A stretch of 64,000 bases of DNA, from positions 5,132 to 69,131 of the forward strand of contig CAZYVS010000001.1 in the NCBI GenBank assembly GCA_964651655.1, read 5' to 3'. Under the pieces are notes generated by a model. The model searched no databases, had not been told where the DNA came from, and worked only from the letters and a program-made list of their open reading frames with translations. Shown piece by piece: positions 12,269 through 58,884 of this stretch; the first letter of the stretch is position 1; each line of letters opens with the position of its first letter. The stretch comes from an uncultured Candidatus Saccharibacteria bacterium. Its GTDB lineage: Bacteria; Patescibacteriota; Minisyncoccia; Phycocordibacterales; Zambryskibacteraceae. The translations under genes and the position numbers were made by a program.

Positions 12269-12286
12269 GGTATGATATATCATACC
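12269..12286. promoter_or_regulatory. 18-bp perfect palindrome GGTATGATATATCATACC (candidate operator), copy 1
   Basis: Self-complementary 18-mer overlapping the start of the YerC-like gene. An identical copy lies 465 bp downstream. Confidence 0.5.
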
Positions 12287-12703: not shown

Positions 12704-12733
12704 CGTATACATTTCGTGTCTAGTTTTATTTGA

Positions 12734-12751
12734 GGTATGATATATCATACC
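12734..12751. promoter_or_regulatory. 18-bp perfect palindrome GGTATGATATATCATACC (candidate operator), copy 2
   Basis: Identical palindrome, here 20 bp including the flanking A/T. Lies 48 nt upstream of the ATG of ORF 12800..13363. Confidence 0.5.
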
Positions 12752-12799
12752 TCTGGACTATCTTGACTCAAACTTAATACTTTGTGGTATATTTAAATT

Positions 12800-19117: not shown

Positions 19118-19140
19118 TGTGCAAAGCTCGGCTTTGCACA
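19118..19140. repeat. REP-like palindromic element, copy 2
   Basis: GTGTGCAAAGC-TCG-GCTTTGCACA, 10-bp arms. Directly upstream of ORF 18683..19111. Confidence 0.6.
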
Positions 19141-30117: not shown

Positions 30118-30366
30118 CTATCTCAAGATGAATAAAGCAAATTTCTTTTCTCGCCTCCATCCTTTAATCTCCGCTTCTCTTTGCCGTGCCTCTTTCAATG
30201 TCTTAAAAGCTTCTTGGTACTTCAATATAACTGGTCTACGCAGTTTTGTGTAATGTGCACCCCACTTCGAATCATTATGTTGTTCTACTCTCCTAACAAG
30301 ATTATTCGTACAACCGACATAGAGAGATTTATCTGCACATTCTAAGATATAGACGAAATACGACAT
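30118..30366 (-). CDS. GIY-YIG nuclease superfamily small protein (UPF0213/YhbQ-like), copy 1
   Basis: 82 aa. 'YFVYILECADKSLYVGCTNNLVRRVEQHN' matches the GIY-(10)-YVG-x-T-x-N-x-x-RR-x-x-H GIY-YIG core. Confidence 0.75.
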   Translation of the reverse strand: MSYFVYILECADKSLYVGCTNNLVRRVEQHNDSKWGAHYTKLRRPVILKYQEAFKTLKEARQREAEIKGWRREKKFALFILR

Positions 30367-30467
30367 GAGAACTTTAGGCCCTTCACTTTCGTTCAGGGAC
30401 TTCTTCTCTCCTGTATATGCTGGCCGCAGGCACTGATGAGCCTTCGTCCAGCGAAGGTGAAGAAGTG

Positions 30468-30538
30468 CTGCGGGGGTAGGAGTCGGACCTACATACGCAG
30501 CTTCAAAGGCTGCTGTCCTGCCGTTAGACGACCCCGCA
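30468..30538 (-). tRNA. tRNA-Gln (anticodon TTG)
   Basis: Hand-folded on the minus strand. Acceptor TGCGGGG/CCCCGCA. D-stem GTCT/GGAC. Anticodon stem GCAGC/GCTGC with loop CTTTGAA (anticodon UUG). T-stem GTAGG/CCTAC with loop TCCGACT. Lies between two GIY-YIG genes. Confidence 0.7.
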
Positions 30539-30540
30539 AA

Positions 30541-30786
30541 TTATTGCAGAAATAGGGTTTTGAGAAACTTTCTACCATTTGCTGTCTTAAGCTGTTTTTC
30601 CCTTTTTCTAGCTTCAGTAAGGTTATCATATTGCTCATGGTAAATCATTACCCATGGTTTATGTCTCTTGGTATAGAAATGCTTACCAGAATTATGTTCA
30701 GCAAGTCTTCTGTCTAAGTTATTGGTCATTCCCACATAACTCTTTTGAACTGAACAACTCTTTAAAACATAAATGTAATAAACCAT
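30541..30786 (-). CDS. GIY-YIG nuclease superfamily small protein (UPF0213/YhbQ-like), copy 2
   Basis: 81 aa. 'YYIYVLKSCSVQKSYVGMTNNLDRRLAEHN' GIY-YIG core. Stop codon is 2 nt before the 5' end of tRNA-Gln(TTG). Confidence 0.75.
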   Translation of the reverse strand: MVYYIYVLKSCSVQKSYVGMTNNLDRRLAEHNSGKHFYTKRHKPWVMIYHEQYDNLTEARKREKQLKTANGRKFLKTLFLQ

Positions 30787-30798
30787 AATAAAAAGGCG

Positions 30799-30920
30799 TG
30801 TCCTACCCGCCTCGCGTCGACTCGCCCTGAATTGGGCGAAGTGAGCAAGTCCCCGCGAGTCGAGGCGGGCCGTTAGACCAGCTTCGACTAGATGTCGAAT
30901 CTAGGCGAGCGACCCCGCAA
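30799..30920 (-). pseudogene. disrupted partial copy of tRNA-Gln(TTG) 5' region carrying two palindromic-element insertions
   Basis: Minus strand reads TTGCGGGGTCG-[31-nt insert with CTAGAT/ATCTAG stem]-GTCTAACGGC-[approx 62-nt GC-rich palindromic insert CCGCCTCGACTCGCGGGG...GCGAGTCGACGCGAGGCGG]-GTAGGACA. Compare with the intact tRNA TGCGGGGTCGTCTAACGGCAGGACA. Sits immediately upstream of GIY-YIG copy 2. Confidence 0.5.
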
Positions 30921-34134: not shown

Positions 34135-34180
34135 AAAGAAAGTATATCAAACCTCTCAATAGACCATACAAGCCCTCTTA

Positions 34181-34205
34181 CTGTGCAAAGCTCGACTTTG
34201 CACAG
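34181..34205. repeat. REP-like palindromic element, copy 3
   Basis: CTGTGCAAAG-CTCGA-CTTTGCACAG, 10-bp perfect arms. Immediately 3' of the REP-associated transposase gene. Confidence 0.65.
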
Positions 34206-34868
34206 TTATGGCAATAGTTCTTTGGTAATTTCCTTAGCTGGACTACTGGAAACAAATTTTTTATACGACGAAATGCTTTTTTCTTTAGTATAACGATCCG
34301 TTATAATATCCGTTACTAATAATCCTTCAAACCTATTTTTATCAATACAATCTTGATAACTTGACCATGGATAGAGATGCTCTTTTCCCGTCCATCCTTT
34401 TATTTCGCATGGATGTTTATGAATGTATGCCGAGGTATGCATTAATTGTCTGTCTTCGCCAATATGGACACTTTTATACGGACCTTGAAATAAGTGCCCG
34501 CTTTTTTCATGTCTAGTATTAAAATACTTTGTATATGCAGTCAAAACCCTGTGCATATATTTAGAAATGCCATTATCAACTAATTCACGAATAATTATAT
34601 GAAAATGGTTTGGCGCTAAACAGAAAACTACTAGTTCCACAATCCTCTTTTTTAGGATATCATTCTTTAACTCATCCGTAATGTGCAAAGTCGATCTTTG
34701 CACATTTTGGCGTATTTCTCTGCTTATATTTTTTATAACCACTTCTCCTTGAAAAGCCATGAGGAGAAATAAAAATCTTAAGCGATCTTGATCTGTTTCA
34801 AAGATTGGTTGTTTTTGCATTCCCCTGTTAAAGACATGCAAATATTCTCCGGGCGCATGAAATCGCAT
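34206..34868 (-). mobile_element. IS200/IS605-family Y1 transposase, REP-associated tyrosine transposase (RAYT)-like
   Basis: 220 aa. 'YLHVFNRGMQKQPIF' N-terminus. HUH motif 'NHFHIIIRE'. Catalytic-Tyr region 'TAYTKYFNTRHEKSGHLFQGPYKSVHI'. Flanked on both sides by REP-like palindromes of one family and carries one copy in-frame. Confidence 0.7.
34680..34706. repeat. REP-like palindromic element, copy 4 (inside the RAYT ORF, in frame)
   Basis: AATGTGCAAAG-TCGAT-CTTTGCACATT, 11-bp perfect arms. It encodes 'NVQRSTLHI' within the transposase. Confidence 0.6.
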
Positions 34869-34894: not shown

Positions 34895-34917
34895 TGTGCA
34901 AAGTCGAGCTTTGCACA
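34895..34917. repeat. REP-like palindromic element, copy 5
   Basis: TGTGCAAAG-TCGAG-CTTTGCACA. Immediately upstream of the RAYT start. Confidence 0.65.
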
Positions 34918-44297: not shown

Positions 44298-47021
44298 ATG
44301 GGTTCTGCAACAGAAATTGCGTGGCACACAAAACCGGTCTCAAAAGTTTTAGAGATATTAAAATCGAGTGAACACGGACTCTCAAGCATTGAGGTAAAAC
44401 ATAGGCTTGAAGAGAATGGGCCAAATGTTTTGCCGGAGTCAAGGCCGGATAATGTTGCTCTTATCTTTCTGCGGCAATTTCAGAGTCCATTAATTTATAT
44501 TCTCCTGGCCGCAGCTTTGGCGGTATTTTTTATAGGAGAGAAAACCGATGGTATTGTTATTATCACAGTTCTCATTTTGAATGCCGTTGTCGGCTCTATT
44601 CAAGAAGGTCGGGCCAGAAATACTCTCCTGGCCTTAAAGCAATACGTGGAAACAAAGGCGGTAGTTTTGCGGGACGACAAAGAAATTATTATTGCCGATT
44701 CGCAGGTGGTGGTAGGAGACATTATCTTACTCCAAGGAGGCGAAAAAATAGCGGCCGATGCAAGAATCATATCCGCACAAAATCTCAAGATTGACGAATC
44801 TTCTCTTACCGGAGAATCAGGGGCGGTGCATAAAACGTCTGACACCTTGGATAATCCAAATCTGACTGCGCAAGAAGAACGCAACATGCTATTCAAAGGC
44901 ACTCACGTGGTCGCCGGCAATGGCAAGGCCATAGTGGTAAGAACCGGGGTGGAAACAATTATCGGTAAAATAGCCAAGGAAGTATCTTTAATTGAGAAAG
45001 AGATCCCGCTTAAAACCAACATTCGCAACCTCTCAAGAATAATTATTCTAATTACGGTGGGTGTCAGCGCTCTTTTATTTATCGTCGGTATTATCTCCGG
45101 CAAATCTATAATTGAGATGCTTGTCTTTGTTATTTCAATTTCGGTTTCCATCATTCCAGAGGGCCTGCCAGTTGCTATTACCGTCATATTGGCCACCGGA
45201 GTTTGGAGGATGAGTAAGAGAAACGCCCTAATTAAACGTCTGCAAGCGGTAGAAGCGCTCGGACAAGCAAAAGTCATCGCAGTCGATAAGACGGGAACCA
45301 TTACCAAAAATGAAATGGTGGTTCAAACCATTCATGTGGACGGTCAGATGTTTGAGATTGACGGAGTCGGATATGAACCGAAGGGTGATATAAGAATCAA
45401 CAAACAAATTATAAATCCGCCCAATCACCCGGAACTTCTACTTTGTGGTAAAATCGCCGCTCTCTCGGCCAGCGCCAGAGTCATGCTTCAAGAAAAAACT
45501 ACGGAATGGAAAATCTCCGGCGACCCAACGGAAGCGGCCATGGTGGTGCTCGCCAGAAAGTTGGGTTTCAATAGAGATGATCTGGAACACGAATCACCGC
45601 TCATGGCAGAGATACCTTTCGACTACAACACTAAATATCATGCGACTCTACATAAAGATAAGGAAACAAATTTCTTAGCAGTAGCCGGCGCGCCCGAAGT
45701 AATTTTAGAAAATTCAAATAAAATTTGGCAAGATAACAAAGAAATAGGCCTCTCTCCCGAACGCAAAGAAGAATTGATATCTATATTCTTCGACATTTCA
45801 AGAAGAGGGCTTAGAGTTCTGGCACTGGCTTCAAGTTCGCGCGGCTCTGACGATTTAAATCAGGAAGATGTAATGAATCTGACCTTTACCGGATTCTGCG
45901 GTCTCAAGGATGCCTTGCGTCTCGAAGTTAAGGAAGCCACCAAACGCGCCATAGCGGCCGGCATGAGAGTGGTGATGATCACCGGCGACCATCAAACCAC
46001 GGCAGAAGCCATAGCCAAGGAAGCGGGTATTTATAAAACCGGTGATACCAGCCTGACCGGTGTTGAGATAGATAAATTTTCGGACGGCGTGCTTAAAGAA
46101 TACTTGACCAAGACTTCGGTATTTGCCAGAGTCACACCGGAACACAAACTCCGCATTATCAATGCTTATAAAGCCAGAGGAGAAATTATTGCTATGACCG
46201 GCGACGGAGTAAATGACGCGCCATCTCTGGTGGCGGCAGATCTTGGAGTGGCAATGGGTAAGATTGGTACAGAAGTGGCTAAGGAAGCTTCTGATATTGT
46301 CCTCTTGGATGATAATTTCGGCAGTATCGTTTCGGCAATAGAGGAAGGCAGAAACATTTACAAAACAATCACAAAAGTAGTTCTTTATCTTCTGTCTACC
46401 AGTCTGGGTGAACTGCTGGTGATTACGGGAGCCATTTTTGTAGGTCTGCCCTTACCACTTTTACCGGCACAGATCATATGGTTAAACTTCGTCACGGACG
46501 GATTCTTCACTGTCGCTCTTGCCATGGAGCCGAAGGAGCACGGCTTGTTGAGCAAAACATTTAAGAAGCCGGGGAGATATCTGGTGGATACTTTGATGGG
46601 GCAGAGAATATTGCTTATGGCGTTACCAATGCTTGTGATAACTCTTGTGTTGTTTCAAAATTATTTTGAAACAGATTTGGCCAAGGCGTGGACAATCTCT
46701 CTCACTGTCCTCGCCGTCTTTCAATGGTTTAATGCTTGGAATTGCCGTTCCGAAAATAAGTCAATCTTTCAGGCAAATATTTTCGAAAACAGATTTATGG
46801 CGGGCGCTACCTTGGCGGCTTTATCGTTCCAGATACTCGCCGTCTATAATCCCTTGTTCCAAAGATTTTTGCATACCGTACCACTTGCTCTTTCCGATTG
46901 GTTGGTTATTATTGCCCTGGCAACTTCTATTATCTGGGTAGAAGAAGTTAGAAAATTTTTATGGCGCAACAAAAAATCCTCGTTATCGTTGGTCCCACCG
47001 CTTCAGGTAAGTCAAGCCTAG
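44298..47021 (+). CDS. cation-transporting P-type ATPase (type IIA/IIB-like)
   Basis: 'DKTGTITKN' phosphorylation motif. 'MITGDHQTTAEAIA' and 'MTGDGVNDAPSLVAADLGVAMG' hinge motifs. Ten TM helices. 907 aa. Confidence 0.85.
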   Translation: MGSATEIAWHTKPVSKVLEILKSSEHGLSSIEVKHRLEENGPNVLPESRPDNVALIFLRQFQSPLIYILLAAALAVFFIGEKTDGIVIITVLILNAVVGSIQEGRARNTLLALKQYVETKAVVLRDDKEIIIADSQVVVGDIILLQGGEKIAADARIISAQNLKIDESSLTGESGAVHKTSDTLDNPNLTAQEERNMLFKGTHVVAGNGKAIVVRTGVETIIGKIAKEVSLIEKEIPLKTNIRNLSRIIILITVGVSALLFIVGIISGKSIIEMLVFVISISVSIIPEGLPVAITVILATGVWRMSKRNALIKRLQAVEALGQAKVIAVDKTGTITKNEMVVQTIHVDGQMFEIDGVGYEPKGDIRINKQIINPPNHPELLLCGKIAALSASARVMLQEKTTEWKISGDPTEAAMVVLARKLGFNRDDLEHESPLMAEIPFDYNTKYHATLHKDKETNFLAVAGAPEVILENSNKIWQDNKEIGLSPERKEELISIFFDISRRGLRVLALASSSRGSDDLNQEDVMNLTFTGFCGLKDALRLEVKEATKRAIAAGMRVVMITGDHQTTAEAIAKEAGIYKTGDTSLTGVEIDKFSDGVLKEYLTKTSVFARVTPEHKLRIINAYKARGEIIAMTGDGVNDAPSLVAADLGVAMGKIGTEVAKEASDIVLLDDNFGSIVSAIEEGRNIYKTITKVVLYLLSTSLGELLVITGAIFVGLPLPLLPAQIIWLNFVTDGFFTVALAMEPKEHGLLSKTFKKPGRYLVDTLMGQRILLMALPMLVITLVLFQNYFETDLAKAWTISLTVLAVFQWFNAWNCRSENKSIFQANIFENRFMAGATLAALSFQILAVYNPLFQRFLHTVPLALSDWLVIIALATSIIWVEEVRKFLWRNKKSSLSLVPPLQVSQA

Positions 47022-47875
47022 CTGTTCGATTAGCAAAAAAATTCAACGGAGAGATAATTTCCGCCGACTCGCGACAAGTCTATAAAGGTCTCGATATTGG
47101 TACGGGTAAAATCACTAAACAAGAGATGCGGGGCGTGCCACATCACCTGCTCAACGTTGCCAATCCTAAAAAACAATTCTCGGTGTCAGAATACAAAACT
47201 CTGGCTGAAAATAACTTACGATATATCGTAAGTTGTGGAAAATTGCCTATAGTTGTTGGGGGAACGGGTTTTTACATAGATACCCTTACCGGAAGAATTA
47301 ACTTTCCTAACGTGCCGCCGGACAAGAAACTTCGAGAGAAACTTTCTCAAAAATCTATTGAGACACTTTTTGAAATGTTGATGAAAAAAGATCCGACTAG
47401 AGCCAAAACAATCGACAAATATAACAAGGTTCGTCTGATCCGCGCTCTAGAGATTATCAAGAAAATTGGCTCCATTCCCCCACTTGGAAGCTCAACCTCC
47501 AAGTCTCGGTACCGCTTCATATTTATCGGATTAAAGCCAGATGACCTCGACAAAAGAATTTACAAAAGATTACTTATAAGATTTAACGGTATAATTCGTG
47601 AAGGCAAAAAACTGCATAAACAAGGACTGTCATACAAACGTATGTATGAACTTGGGCTTGAATACCGATATATTGGTATGTATTTGCAAAATAAAATCTC
47701 TAAAAAAGAAACAATGGATAAACTTTATTTGGCAATCAAACACTACGCCAAGCGGCAAATGACCTGGTTTAAGCGAAATAAAGAAATTAGATGGTTTACC
47801 ATGAGCTCTGTCGAAGGGTTCAAACCGGAAACATACAAAGAGATAGAAAAATATACTGGACGTATGCTAGGATGA
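46961..47875 (+). CDS. miaA: tRNA dimethylallyltransferase
   Basis: '[45 protein letters not shown]' P-loop N-terminus, typical of MiaA. Contains an in-frame 'PLGSSTSK' element. Confidence 0.85.
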   Translation: [304 protein letters not shown]

Positions 47876-47882
47876 CGTCACT

Positions 47883-47955
47883 GGGCGATTAGTTAAGTGG
47901 TATAACTTCGGTCTCCACCCCGTCGCTCGCGAGCGACGGGGTCCAAAACCGATAT
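47883..47955 (+). pseudogene. partial tRNA-Trp copy (5' portion, nt 1 to about 45) with 28-nt insertion in the anticodon loop
   Basis: GGGCGATTAGTTAAGTGGTATAACTTCGGTCTCC is identical to the 5' half of the intact tRNA-Trp at 48209. A perfect 24-nt palindrome CCCCGTCGCTCGCGAGCGACGGGG (47908..47931) follows. Then comes ...AAAACCGATAT, abutting the ATG of GIY-YIG copy 3. Confidence 0.55.
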
Positions 47956-47957
47956 AT

Positions 47958-48218
47958 ATGTATTACGTATATATTCTAAAAAATCTCAAAACAAAGAATT
48001 TGTATATAGGATACACCCGAAATTTAAGACGTAGAATAAATGAGCATCAGAGCGGAAAGGTATACACAACAAAACGATTAGGACGTGATGTGGACCTCGT
48101 TTACTACGAAGCTTATAAAAATGAGGATGATGCAAGAGATAGGGAGAAAAGTTTTAAAAATTCTGGTTCCGTGTACAATGGACTAGTTAAACGAATAAAA
48201 CGCAGTAGGGGCGATTAG
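47958..48218 (+). CDS. GIY-YIG nuclease superfamily small protein (UPF0213/YhbQ-like), copy 3
   Basis: 86 aa. 'YYVYILKNLKTKNLYIGYTRNLRRRINEHQ' GIY-YIG core. The 3' end overlaps the first 10 nt of the intact tRNA-Trp. Confidence 0.75.
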   Translation: MYYVYILKNLKTKNLYIGYTRNLRRRINEHQSGKVYTTKRLGRDVDLVYYEAYKNEDDARDREKSFKNSGSVYNGLVKRIKRSRGD

Positions 48219-48282
48219 TTAAGTGGTATAACTTCGGTCTCCAAAACCGATATCGGGGGTTCGATTCCCTCATCGCCCGCCA
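48209..48282 (+). tRNA. tRNA-Trp (anticodon CCA)
   Basis: Acceptor GGGCGAT/ATCGCCC plus G-CCA. D-stem GTTA/TAAC. Anticodon stem TCGGT/ACCGA with loop CTCCAAA. T-stem GGGGG/CCCTC with loop TTCGATT. Confidence 0.8.
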
Positions 48283-48283
48283 A

Positions 48284-48457
48284 TCAGATTTTCTTTTCCT
48301 TGTAGATGGTGTGCTTGCGCGCTATGGGGTTGTATTTTTTGAACTCAAGTTTGCGCTCGACGGATTTTCGATTTTTGCGCGAATAATAAGTGTGGCCTTT
48401 ACCGACCCCTTTTTCGTCTCCCACCGAGACTAGTTTTATGAGATGCAATTGCGACAT
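48284..48457 (-). CDS. rpmG: 50S ribosomal protein L33
   Basis: Hand translation (minus strand): MSQLHLIKLVSVGDEKGVGKGHTYYSRKNRKSVERKLEFKKYNPIARKHTIYKEKKI. It matches the L33 pattern (...KNxR...KLELKKYDP..RKH..YKE.K). 57 aa and not in the ORF track. Confidence 0.7.
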   Translation of the reverse strand: MSQLHLIKLVSVGDEKGVGKGHTYYSRKNRKSVERKLEFKKYNPIARKHTIYKEKKI

Positions 48458-48469
48458 GGAAAGAAATGG

Positions 48470-48724
48470 TTACTTAGCGGCATAAATCTCAGCTCCTTCC
48501 TTCACCGGCTGAGAAACCTTTATAGCCACTTCTTCACCTTTCTTGCCAGACTTGACAGATTTGTGATCAAGTTGCATAGAAGCAACCGTGTCCGTAAATT
48601 CTTGATCCCCGCGTCTTATATTGACCTGGCTCCCAACTTTGAGAGCCTTATTCAATCTAACCACCGCCACGCCAAGCTTGTCGTAGAAATGCACCACCTT
48701 GCCGATTGGTTTTTCCTTTAACAT
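48470..48724 (-). CDS. small stand-alone beta-barrel protein resembling the C-terminal domain of translation factors (IF2 C2 / EF-Tu domain 2-like)
   Basis: 84 aa. 'GKVVHFYDKLGVAVVRLNKALKVGSQVNIRRGDQEFTDTVASMQLDHKSVKSGKKGEEVAIKV' resembles in pattern the C-terminus of this window's own IF2 ('GKQIVGGRVLSGQIKHGANVKIIRRG...VKELQQSKIAIDSVNEDVEFGAMIE'). Confidence 0.35.
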   Translation of the reverse strand: MLKEKPIGKVVHFYDKLGVAVVRLNKALKVGSQVNIRRGDQEFTDTVASMQLDHKSVKSGKKGEEVAIKVSQPVKEGAEIYAAK

Positions 48725-58856: not shown

Positions 58857-58884
58857 GCTAACATACGATATATCGTATGTTAGC
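58857..58884. terminator. 28-bp perfect palindrome between convergent rnr and smc (bidirectional terminator candidate), related to the YerC-operator palindrome
   Basis: GCTAACATACGATA|TATCGTATGTTAGC. The central ACGATATATCGT resembles the GATATATC core of the palindromes at 12269 and 12734. Confidence 0.45.

Follow-up and report, generated by a model that had tools for sequence, protein, structure and literature searches.

What is a gene for a GIY-YIG nuclease doing at the 5' end of a tRNA-Trp gene, with a severed copy of the same tRNA on its other side? The question is raised by a 64-kb stretch of DNA (hereafter the window, taken at its full length of 64,000 nucleotides) from Candidatus Zambryskibacteria, a lineage of the candidate phyla radiation (CPR/Patescibacteria). 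An earlier note on this DNA, made from the letters alone, had placed three pieces in a row, namely a dead 5' copy of tRNA-Trp, an open reading frame (ORF) for an 86-aa GIY-YIG protein and an intact tRNA-Trp, and repeat search, BLAST, Pfam, ARAGORN and Rfam located all three exactly there (Table 1). On balance, the region is best described as a selfish DNA cassette of about 326 bp at the 5' end of the single tRNA-Trp gene, and, with the same slight leaning in its favour, the unit would have a 24-nt palindrome standing between the dead 5' half of tRNA-Trp and a short leftover of the 3' side of the tRNA, with the nuclease gene completing the cassette.

The dead copy begins 7 nt after the stop codon of miaA. 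Its first piece contains the 5' strand of the acceptor stem, the D arm, the 5' strand of the anticodon stem and the loop up to the anticodon CCA. Within the anticodon loop follows the perfect palindrome CCCCGTCGCTCGCGAGCGACGGGG, laid out as CCCCG-TCGC-TCGCGA-GCGA-CGGGG (26 nt if the flanking A/T is counted), and then the second piece, TCCAAAACCGATAT, which comprises TCCA, the remaining anticodon loop, the 3' strand of the anticodon stem and the start of the variable region; TCCA is found on either side of the palindrome. The fragment had previously been described as covering nt 1 to about 45 of the tRNA, and this holds once the palindrome is removed (nt 1–35 plus nt 32–45). Neither ARAGORN nor Rfam reported the 5' fragment, which was found through the repeat search and BLAST; the suggested tRNA-gene scan hence upheld the intact tRNA and did not return the pseudo-tRNA. 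The ATG of the nuclease gene begins 2 nt past the dead fragment and is preceded by no Shine-Dalgarno-like sequence. At its other end, the last 10 nt of the ORF are the first 10 nt of the intact tRNA-Trp(CCA), the stop codon TAG being U8-A9-G10 of the tRNA. Judged from its sequence, this tRNA, the only tRNA-Trp(CCA) counted by ARAGORN and Rfam, looks functional.

Relatives with the same gene order were gathered by a metagenome scan with MiaA, and among them is the empty site whose existence had been put forward as a check. In locus L144, whose rpmG is 87% identical to that of the window, the miaA stop codon is followed by 9 nt, an intact tRNA-Trp and rpmG on the opposite strand, and in L085 the intact tRNA-Trp follows the miaA stop codon after 8 nt. 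Both loci have tRNA-Trp in the same synteny with neither an ORF nor a dead tRNA copy, and four further loci (L084, L149, L101 and L098) are empty as well. The tRNA-Trp of the empty sites starts 8–9 nt past the miaA stop codon, and it is this ancestral place that the dead 5' piece holds in the window. Against the empty sites the window is longer by 326 bp, gained inside nt 1–35 of tRNA-Trp, and the 35-nt repeat leaves one intact tRNA; because of this repeat, the exact register of the insertion is ambiguous. The closest relative, L082, is filled and has the same architecture and the same palindrome (MiaA 75–78% and L33 93% identical). Filled and empty alleles at a fixed site in a conserved gene form a presence/absence polymorphism of the kind by which homing genes are recognised.

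The cassette is younger than the genes flanking it. Between the window and L082 the synonymous divergence (dS), estimated for the nuclease from 86 codons in one genome pair, is 0.30 for the GIY-YIG gene, 1.89 for miaA and 1.24 for rpmG. The two are 100% identical over the 75 nt that run from the start of the dead copy to the ATG, and the 7 nt directly upstream agree at 3/7 positions. L002 is discordant: its rpmG is 44% and its GIY-YIG protein 78% identical to the respective sequences of the window, whereas nearer hosts with an rpmG identity of 81–91% have GIY-YIG proteins that are 67–71% identical. Dead piece and resident tRNA-Trp are 100% identical in seven loci; in six others (L004, L006, L163, L002, L171 and L173) the dead piece is 89–100% identical to the resident tRNA-Trp of another genome and 71–80% identical to that of its own, and in the related hosts L002 and L171 the dead-copy and resident types are swapped. 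The variants of the palindrome (GTCAC, GTCGT) track the type of the dead copy, not that of the resident tRNA. Furthermore, the dead copies of L162 and L168 match the resident tRNA over the first 31 or 25 nt only, that of L162 being diverged beyond the palindrome (roughly 0/31 versus 9/34 mismatches). Foreign-type and mosaic dead copies argue for recombination within the homology arm, not for neutral decay of a local duplicate, and these comparisons indicate that the cassette moves between lineages together with its dead tRNA half and its palindrome. Low dS, the discordance of L002 and the foreign-type dead pieces are what horizontal spread of a homing gene is expected to leave. Together with the empty sites and the partly discordant similarities, they agree with the proposal that this is not ordinary gene order and that a mobile, tRNA-associated nuclease cassette is at hand. 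A model that makes the live tRNA the cargo of the cassette and the dead piece the old resident was disfavoured, as the palindrome variants track the dead-copy type and the resident tRNA of L004 is native to its host clade; it may apply to loci with extra 3' fragments, such as L004 and L045.

The association with tRNA genes extends across the family. A scan of one genome per species gave at least 556 loci with relatives of the nuclease, 80 of which were retrieved, and the nearest relatives among these are nearly all placed directly 5' of a same-strand tRNA-Trp. The gene upstream of the cassette varies (rpmG in L002, L003, L005–L007 and L023; miaA in the window and L009), which argues that the nuclease gene follows the tRNA, not its neighbours. 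A tRNA on the same strand starts between -20 and +100 nt from the stop codon in 19 of the 80 homologues, as against 0.5–1% of control positions (binomial 2e-15), and a tRNA on the opposite strand was met in one case. Further targets are tRNAs for Ala, Phe, Val, Asp and Leu. The stop codon is formed by tRNA U8-A9-G10 in ten loci, where the C-terminal residues vary with the sequence of the acceptor stem (GD or GL). The window itself contains a second cassette, at tRNA-Gln(UUG), in which the dead 5' copy of the tRNA is split by a 32-nt insert and a GC-rich imperfect palindrome of about 64 nt (CCCGCCTCG...CGAGGCGGG). A third GIY-YIG mini-gene lies nearby (Table 1), and the three proteins of the window are about 41% identical pairwise, the one ending next to tRNA-Gln sharing 41% with the tRNA-Trp-linked protein. 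The search for more GIY-YIG/tRNA pairs that had been recommended was thus answered both within the window and among the homologues.

Some loci show additional tRNA debris. Hairpin-bearing tRNA-Trp fragments (anticodon arm and 3' half) are present downstream of the resident tRNA in L004 (2830–2905), L007 (2871–2915), L045 (2848–2960) and L048 (2840–2865), and L004 has a 43-nt direct repeat, made up of anticodon arm and palindrome, on both sides of ORF and tRNA. Such downstream fragments suggest repeated rounds of copy gain and inactivation, which fall outside a simple model. A dead tRNA-Trp of L048 (2420–2500) has its D arm swapped for the GC hairpin CCCCGCGGCGGCGGGG and carries TCCCGCAGCTGCGGGA in place of the 3' strand of the anticodon stem, the variable loop and the 5' strand of the T-stem, its other segments matching the resident tRNA. 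In L164 an ORF for a LAGLIDADG_3 protein (273 aa, 95–916) overlaps or abuts tRNA-Tyr just upstream of rpmG and the GIY-YIG/tRNA-Trp cassette, and is a second gene of homing-endonuclease type in this tRNA-rich neighbourhood.

The nuclease gene is conserved and under purifying selection, the ratio of nonsynonymous to synonymous divergence (dN/dS) between the window and L082 being about 0.12. In an alignment of 31 homologues, Y3, Y5, Y16-I17-G18, R26, H30 and E63 are invariant, representing the catalytic Tyr, the Tyr-Ile-Gly motif, Arg, His and Glu. The AlphaFold model, with a predicted local distance difference test (pLDDT) score of 86, has the order strand-strand-helix-helix-strand-helix-helix, i.e. 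the GIY-YIG topology. A profile search of the PDB returned 1zg2 (E 1.1e-11) and 1ywl (E 4.7e-09), with Slx1 and I-TevI far behind, and Foldseek matched 1zg2 followed by the catalytic domains of Slx1, I-TevI and UvrC. The UPF0213 proteins BH0048 and EF2693 are, by sequence and fold, the nearest relatives of known structure, and the label YhbQ-like given earlier is accordingly appropriate; the protein has the sequence and fold of the GIY-YIG superfamily and, as a stand-alone domain within the range of about 85–105 aa that is nearest to BH0048 and EF2693, the features of UPF0213. It is a bare nuclease domain of YhbQ type that looks functional, and it is probably structure-specific, because its nearest characterised relatives are structure-specific nucleases. 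The joining of a catalytic domain to a DNA-binding domain for long targets, as in I-TevI and the Seg enzymes, is not seen in this protein, and the NCBIfam model of group-I-intron endonucleases scored 20.7 bits, compared with a cut-off of 56.

A defence or phage origin was rejected on account of the weakness of the PADLOC and PHROGs matches. PADLOC gave partial-domain matches only, with E 5e-4 or worse for the 86-aa protein, none of which amounts to a defence model. A set of 2.9 million viral contigs contained three distant homologues of the nuclease and no match to the palindrome motif. Public gene calls for six homologues (P0002, P0005, P0008, P0015, P0081 and P0090) have the N-terminus extended across the dead tRNA and the palindrome (e.g. 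...GRLVKWYNFGLHPVARERRGPKPIY-M...), and the call for one homologue continues through the live tRNA. Mis-extended calls of 148 and 147 aa were found. All of these are annotation artefacts to which the architecture of dead tRNA, palindrome and ORF gives rise.

The palindrome occurs once in the window and in 0 of 100 shuffles, and the count for the window remains one when up to three mismatches and related CCCC-type motifs are admitted; a genome-wide repeat resembling repetitive extragenic palindromic (REP) sequences was rejected for this genome on the basis of that single copy. When CCCCG-N4-TCGCGA-N4-CGGGG was sought with fuzzy matching in the whole set of 167 fetched loci (725 kb), 28 matches came up, 26 of them beside GIY-YIG/tRNA cassettes, and none in 79 MiaA loci without the nuclease gene. 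At least 12 lineages (the window, L002–L004, L006, L009, L015, L082, L163, L168, L171 and L173) carry it at the same site in the anticodon loop. Its stem is 96% paired, 6 of 10 pairs are changed on both sides, with 0 of 500 shuffles as good, and the centre TCGCGA is invariant among the copies adjacent to an ORF. In L164–L167 and L172 it stands directly after the rpmG stop codon (TAA/palindrome/TAA) without any tRNA fragment, and thus goes with the ORF, not with the dead tRNA. Other copies are placed in D loops (L002, L004, L005 and L171), in tandem (L162) or nested in each other's centres (L004). Short repeats flank the palindromes or elements, TCCA in the window and TCA, TAA, AAG, CCCTTAG or CCTATAG elsewhere. 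The earlier note had seen the palindrome as an insertion into a dead copy that had become a sink for such elements. The flanking repeats do support a family of inserting palindromes, but an opportunistic or late arrival does not fit the constant site and the compensatory changes.

The palindrome is best read as an ORF-less counterpart of the ends of the wider element family, and as an integral, co-inherited part of the cassette, where it probably serves as a structured DNA recognition site or a regulatory site of the nuclease. Its interpretation as a Rho-independent terminator is unsupported, no T-tract following it, and so is one as a sigma-70 promoter, 47500–48500 being devoid of promoter-like hexamers. 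Around most relatives of the nuclease, CCCC...GGGG repeats were observed (L019, L021, L029, L042, L049, L052, L059, L075, L080 and others, at about 2400–2900 of each locus); the 5' arm of these elements ends at the ATG, the stop codon lies inside the 3' arm, and extra ORF-less hairpins of the same sequence are found nearby. Elements and hairpins together look like a pair of an autonomous element and a miniature inverted-repeat transposable element (MITE).

How might such a cassette spread? The route to which we give a modest preference is homing-like homologous recombination by means of portable tRNA homology arms. The nuclease would break or nick a naive tRNA-Trp gene, and repair would use a filled allele as template: at the left end the pairing partner would be the dead 5' half, at the right end the live tRNA, and the stretch in between would be copied in. 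The homology arms would be parts of a universally conserved gene, and the crossover point would decide whether the new dead piece is of recipient type, mosaic or of donor type. With the nuclease gene on the strand of the tRNA and between the tRNA and its promoter, the host would be compelled to transcribe it along with an essential tRNA, and cleavage by RNase P at tRNA position +1 would remove the borrowed stop codon and could hold the level of the nuclease low.

Several points weigh against spread by homing. The homology arms are short (35 and 74 nt). The filled allele keeps an intact tRNA-Trp, so a nuclease recognising the tRNA would cut its own host, and no protection is evident. Beyond the GIY-YIG residues 1–69 the protein has only a short basic helix and no DNA-binding domain, and its role as a site-specific homing endonuclease cutting tRNA-Trp DNA is putative. 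Sigma-70 promoter-like hexamers were not found in 47500–48500, and the transcription steps are inferred. No dead copy exists in L007, L164–L167 and L172, and the 3' tRNA fragments with hairpins downstream of the resident tRNA in L004, L007 and L045 have no place in the scheme. The narrow base of the dS estimate counts here as well. Finally, much of the distribution of the cassette appears to be vertical, because the similarity of the ORF is partly congruent with that of its host (partial correlation with rpmG similarity in 12 genomes, Spearman 0.56).

The most serious alternative, although we regard it as unlikely, is a transposon-like process in which the GIY-YIG protein inserts a unit bounded by hairpins or inverted repeats at staggered nicks in folded tRNA-gene DNA. 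The nicks would fall at the base of the acceptor stem and in a tRNA loop, the 35-nt repeat would be a long target-site duplication, and the 24-nt palindrome would be a MITE-like copy, inserted separately with a 4-nt duplication of TCCA. Inverted repeats bracket 49 of 81 ORFs of the family, compared with 1.8% of control positions; on the 5' side they end 0–7 nt ahead of the ATG, and on the 3' side they overlap with the stop codon. In L049 and L075 the termini are perfect inverted repeats of 19 bp (CCCCTCAC...GTGAGGGG), located after nt 10 of tRNA-Ala and flanked by a 7-nt repeat of tRNA-Ala nt 4–10. L036 offers an ORF-less twin: its 24-nt palindrome occupies the site of those two elements and has the 7-nt repeat in common with them. 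Perfect terminal repeats of 19 bp are also present in L042, a 4-nt flanking repeat in L080 and an 11-nt repeat at the 3' end of tRNA-Ile in L060. The short repeats that flank the palindromes and their nesting in L004 point in the same direction, as does the fact that the duplicated tRNA segments always begin at nt 1–4 and finish at a loop. However, GIY-YIG enzymes hydrolyse DNA, and strand transfer is known for none of them. The ORFs of the tRNA-Trp clade, that of the window included, are not bracketed by inverted repeats, the only complete palindrome of the window cassette being on the 5' side. Foreign and mosaic dead copies would not be expected if the repeat were always derived from the recipient, the palindrome shows no dispersal, a single copy being present in the 64 kb, and its constant site, taken together with a tRNA remnant of variable length, fits a single ancestral structure with deletions better than a series of independent events.

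A non-mobile origin, which we consider quite improbable, would involve an ancestral tandem duplication of tRNA-Trp, decay of the upstream copy and a vertically inherited housekeeping UPF0213 gene co-transcribed with the tRNA. UPF0213/YhbQ-type genes are indeed widespread chromosomal genes of unknown function, the similarities of ORF and host are partly correlated, and in L162 and L168 a nearly full-length dead tRNA stands directly before the ATG. Against this stand the empty sites in close relatives, a dS 4–6 times below that of the flanks, and dead copies of the tRNA type of other lineages, with the swap between L002 and L171. The same architecture recurs at tRNAs for Gln, Ala and Phe, and neutral decay would not leave 35/35 identity in seven lineages.

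GIY-YIG genes often reside inside group I introns, and the anticodon loop, in which the insertion lies, is the classic site of group I introns in bacterial tRNAs. The 326 nt could accordingly be thought of as a group I or archaeal-type tRNA intron with its homing gene, removed from the precursor. This is highly improbable: an Rfam scan of 47700–48400 with E up to 1 detected the intact tRNA only and no intron, the ORF takes 261 of the 326 nt and leaves no space for a ribozyme core, and the intact downstream tRNA makes splicing unnecessary. A group I intron was rejected on these grounds, the interrupted copy not being the sole one; the GIY-YIG insertions of CPR rRNA genes are no introns either (PMC11270868). 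That a duplicated read block or a contig join produced the 35-nt repeat, a possibility which the earlier note had named as fatal to its reading, can practically be dismissed, for although metagenome mis-joins can yield short exact repeats, the same architecture is found in the independent contig L082 from a Joint Genome Institute (JGI) metagenome and, with sequence variation, in about 20 further loci from NCBI, ENA, JGI and Logan assemblies, and the ORF crosses the junction in frame.

If spread by homing is correct, the cassette would be the smallest self-contained mobile nuclease cassette described in bacteria, and a new way in which selfish DNA can settle in an essential single-copy gene while sparing the host and needing no self-splicing intron. 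The solution would consist of a repeated tRNA 5' half and the invariant tRNA U8-A9-G10 borrowed as stop codon. A part of the UPF0213/YhbQ family, the role of which has been open since structures were solved in 2005, would gain a testable function, and the non-intron GIY-YIG insertions in CPR rRNA genes would be accounted for. Foreign-type dead tRNA halves would be markers of gene flow between uncultured CPR lineages. For annotation, the consequence is that gene callers run ORFs through tRNA fragments. More tentatively, and with less confidence than the cassette itself, we propose a new class of elements in CPR/Patescibacteria: units of about 0.3 kb with CCCC...GGGG inverted repeats that would encode only a structure-specific GIY-YIG nuclease of about 85 aa, accompanied by ORF-less 24-nt palindromes as non-autonomous forms. 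Such units would be aimed at DNA able to form stem-loops, chiefly at tRNA 5' parts, and would restore the tRNA through a repeat of its 5' segment; in the tRNA-Trp lineage the dead half would in addition serve as a portable arm for homing between lineages.

Table 1. Positions of the features at the tRNA-Trp and tRNA-Gln loci of the window.
Feature	Position	Strand	Evidence
miaA (tRNA isopentenyltransferase), upstream neighbour	46961..47875	+	Pfam IPPT E 1.3e-60
Dead 5' copy of tRNA-Trp, nt 1-35	47883..47917	+	35/35 identical to 48209-48243; BLAST E 3.7e-15
Perfect 24-nt GC-rich palindrome in anticodon loop of dead copy	47918..47941	.	Unique in window
Second piece of dead tRNA-Trp copy, nt 32-45	47942..47955	+	14/14 identical to 48240-48253
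AT-rich hairpin containing nuclease start codon	47952..47974	+	Inverted repeat; seen in RNA minimum-free-energy fold
86-aa GIY-YIG nuclease gene (UPF0213/YhbQ-like)	47958..48218	+	Pfam GIY-YIG PF01541 E 2e-17, residues 1-69
Intact tRNA-Trp(CCA), encoded CCA end	48209..48282	+	ARAGORN; Rfam RF00005 68.5 bits, full length
rpmG (ribosomal protein L33), downstream neighbour	48284..48457	-	Pfam Ribosomal_L33 E 6e-13
Dead 5' copy of tRNA-Gln(UUG), nt 1-10, 11-18, 20-25	30799..30919	-	Direct sequence reading
81-aa GIY-YIG gene, end 2 nt before tRNA-Gln	30541..30786	-	Pfam GIY-YIG E 1.2e-15
Intact tRNA-Gln(UUG)	30467..30538	-	ARAGORN; Rfam 56.6 bits
Third GIY-YIG mini-gene, 82 aa, about 100 nt 3' of tRNA-Gln	30118..30366	-	Pfam GIY-YIG E 4e-17

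The genes around the tRNA-Trp cassette encode a P-type ATPase, MiaA, L33 and a pyridine-nucleotide oxidoreductase. The NCBI record GCA_016185455.1 (JACPNM010000001.1) differs from the window at four positions (49381, 49396, 49410 and 49503), all within the gene for the pyridine-nucleotide-disulfide oxidoreductase. This gene is one intact ORF of 502 aa in the window, whereas the record splits it into two calls of 185 and 282 aa; over the cassette region, window and record agree completely. Two further groups of repeats were observed in the window. Hairpins with TGTGCAAAG...CTTTGCACA arms and loops of approximately GCTCGGC or TCGA occur in at least five copies (316–344, 19118–19140, 34180–34206, 34680–34706 and 34895–34917); they may be terminators or a REP-like repeat and have no sequence kinship to the cassette palindrome. 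Four perfect AT-rich palindromes have the centre ACGATATATCGT or TGATATATCA (12269–12286, 12732–12753, 47213–47234 and 58857–58884), one of them inside miaA.

In a literature search of incomplete coverage, no tRNA-linked GIY-YIG cassette with a repeated 5' tRNA part and a palindrome was found described, and the arrangement appears to be previously undescribed. Islands and prophages of tyrosine integrases use tRNA genes as landing sites, a partial tRNA repeat keeping the gene intact. The window cassette has the landing site and the partial repeat in common with them; in contrast, its repeat is the 5' and not the 3' part of the tRNA, the element measures only about 0.3 kb, and no integrase or transposase is present in its flanks, in line with the integrase-less nature that had been proposed. 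An integrase-mediated tRNA island was rejected for the lack of a recombinase among the neighbours and for the 5' origin of the repeat. DNA hairpins beside an enzyme gene are shared with REP sequences and their associated tyrosine transposases (RAYT) and with IS200/IS605; unlike in these systems, the only enzyme is of the GIY-YIG type, an HUH (Y1) transposase is missing, and the palindromes are not dispersed.

Within the same group of organisms, GIY-YIG ORFs were reported from non-intron insertions at the tops or bases of stem-loops in CPR rRNA genes, and were not believed to spread by homing (Tsurumaki et al. 2024, PMC11270868). These insertions resemble the window cassette in being non-intron; tRNA association, 5' duplication and palindrome are unreported there (PMC11270868). 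The UPF0213/YhbQ/YazA proteins are single-domain GIY-YIG proteins like that of the window and are regarded as products of ordinary chromosomal genes of unknown function, whereas Slx1, unlike the window protein, needs Slx4 and a RING/PHD domain. To our knowledge, neither UPF0213 nor Slx1 has been known as mobile or tRNA-linked.

Free-standing GIY-YIG homing genes are reportedly found in phages, such as segB in a tRNA gene cluster of T4 and other Seg/Mob genes. Common to them and the cassette are a nuclease gene that stands next to or within conserved genes and in no intron, the presence/absence polymorphism and, presumably in the case of the cassette, inheritance with flanking sequence through break repair. 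Seg-type enzymes have 200–250 aa with DNA-binding domains, compared with the bare catalytic domain of 86 aa in the window. Unlike Seg genes, the cassette rebuilds its target by the repeat of the tRNA 5' part, has a conserved palindrome and resides on a CPR chromosome, its family being almost absent from viral contigs. Beside these phage genes, the closest functional analogue is mitochondrial: Paquin, Laforest and Lang are said to have described in 1994 a mobile GIY-YIG ORF in atp6 of Allomyces that brings a replacement gene end. There, as in the window, an ORF enters an essential gene, a duplicated end restores the function and the displaced end becomes a dead fragment, and the ORF co-occurs with short GC-rich hairpins bearing short flanking repeats. 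GC-rich mobile palindromes comprise the GC clusters of yeast, the double-hairpin elements of Allomyces and the PstI palindromes flanking tRNA genes in Neurospora (PMC2800124). The window cassette differs from the Allomyces case in that its target is a tRNA whose 5' end is duplicated, instead of the C-terminus of a protein, in that its host is a bacterium, and in that the palindrome lies within the cassette at a fixed site.

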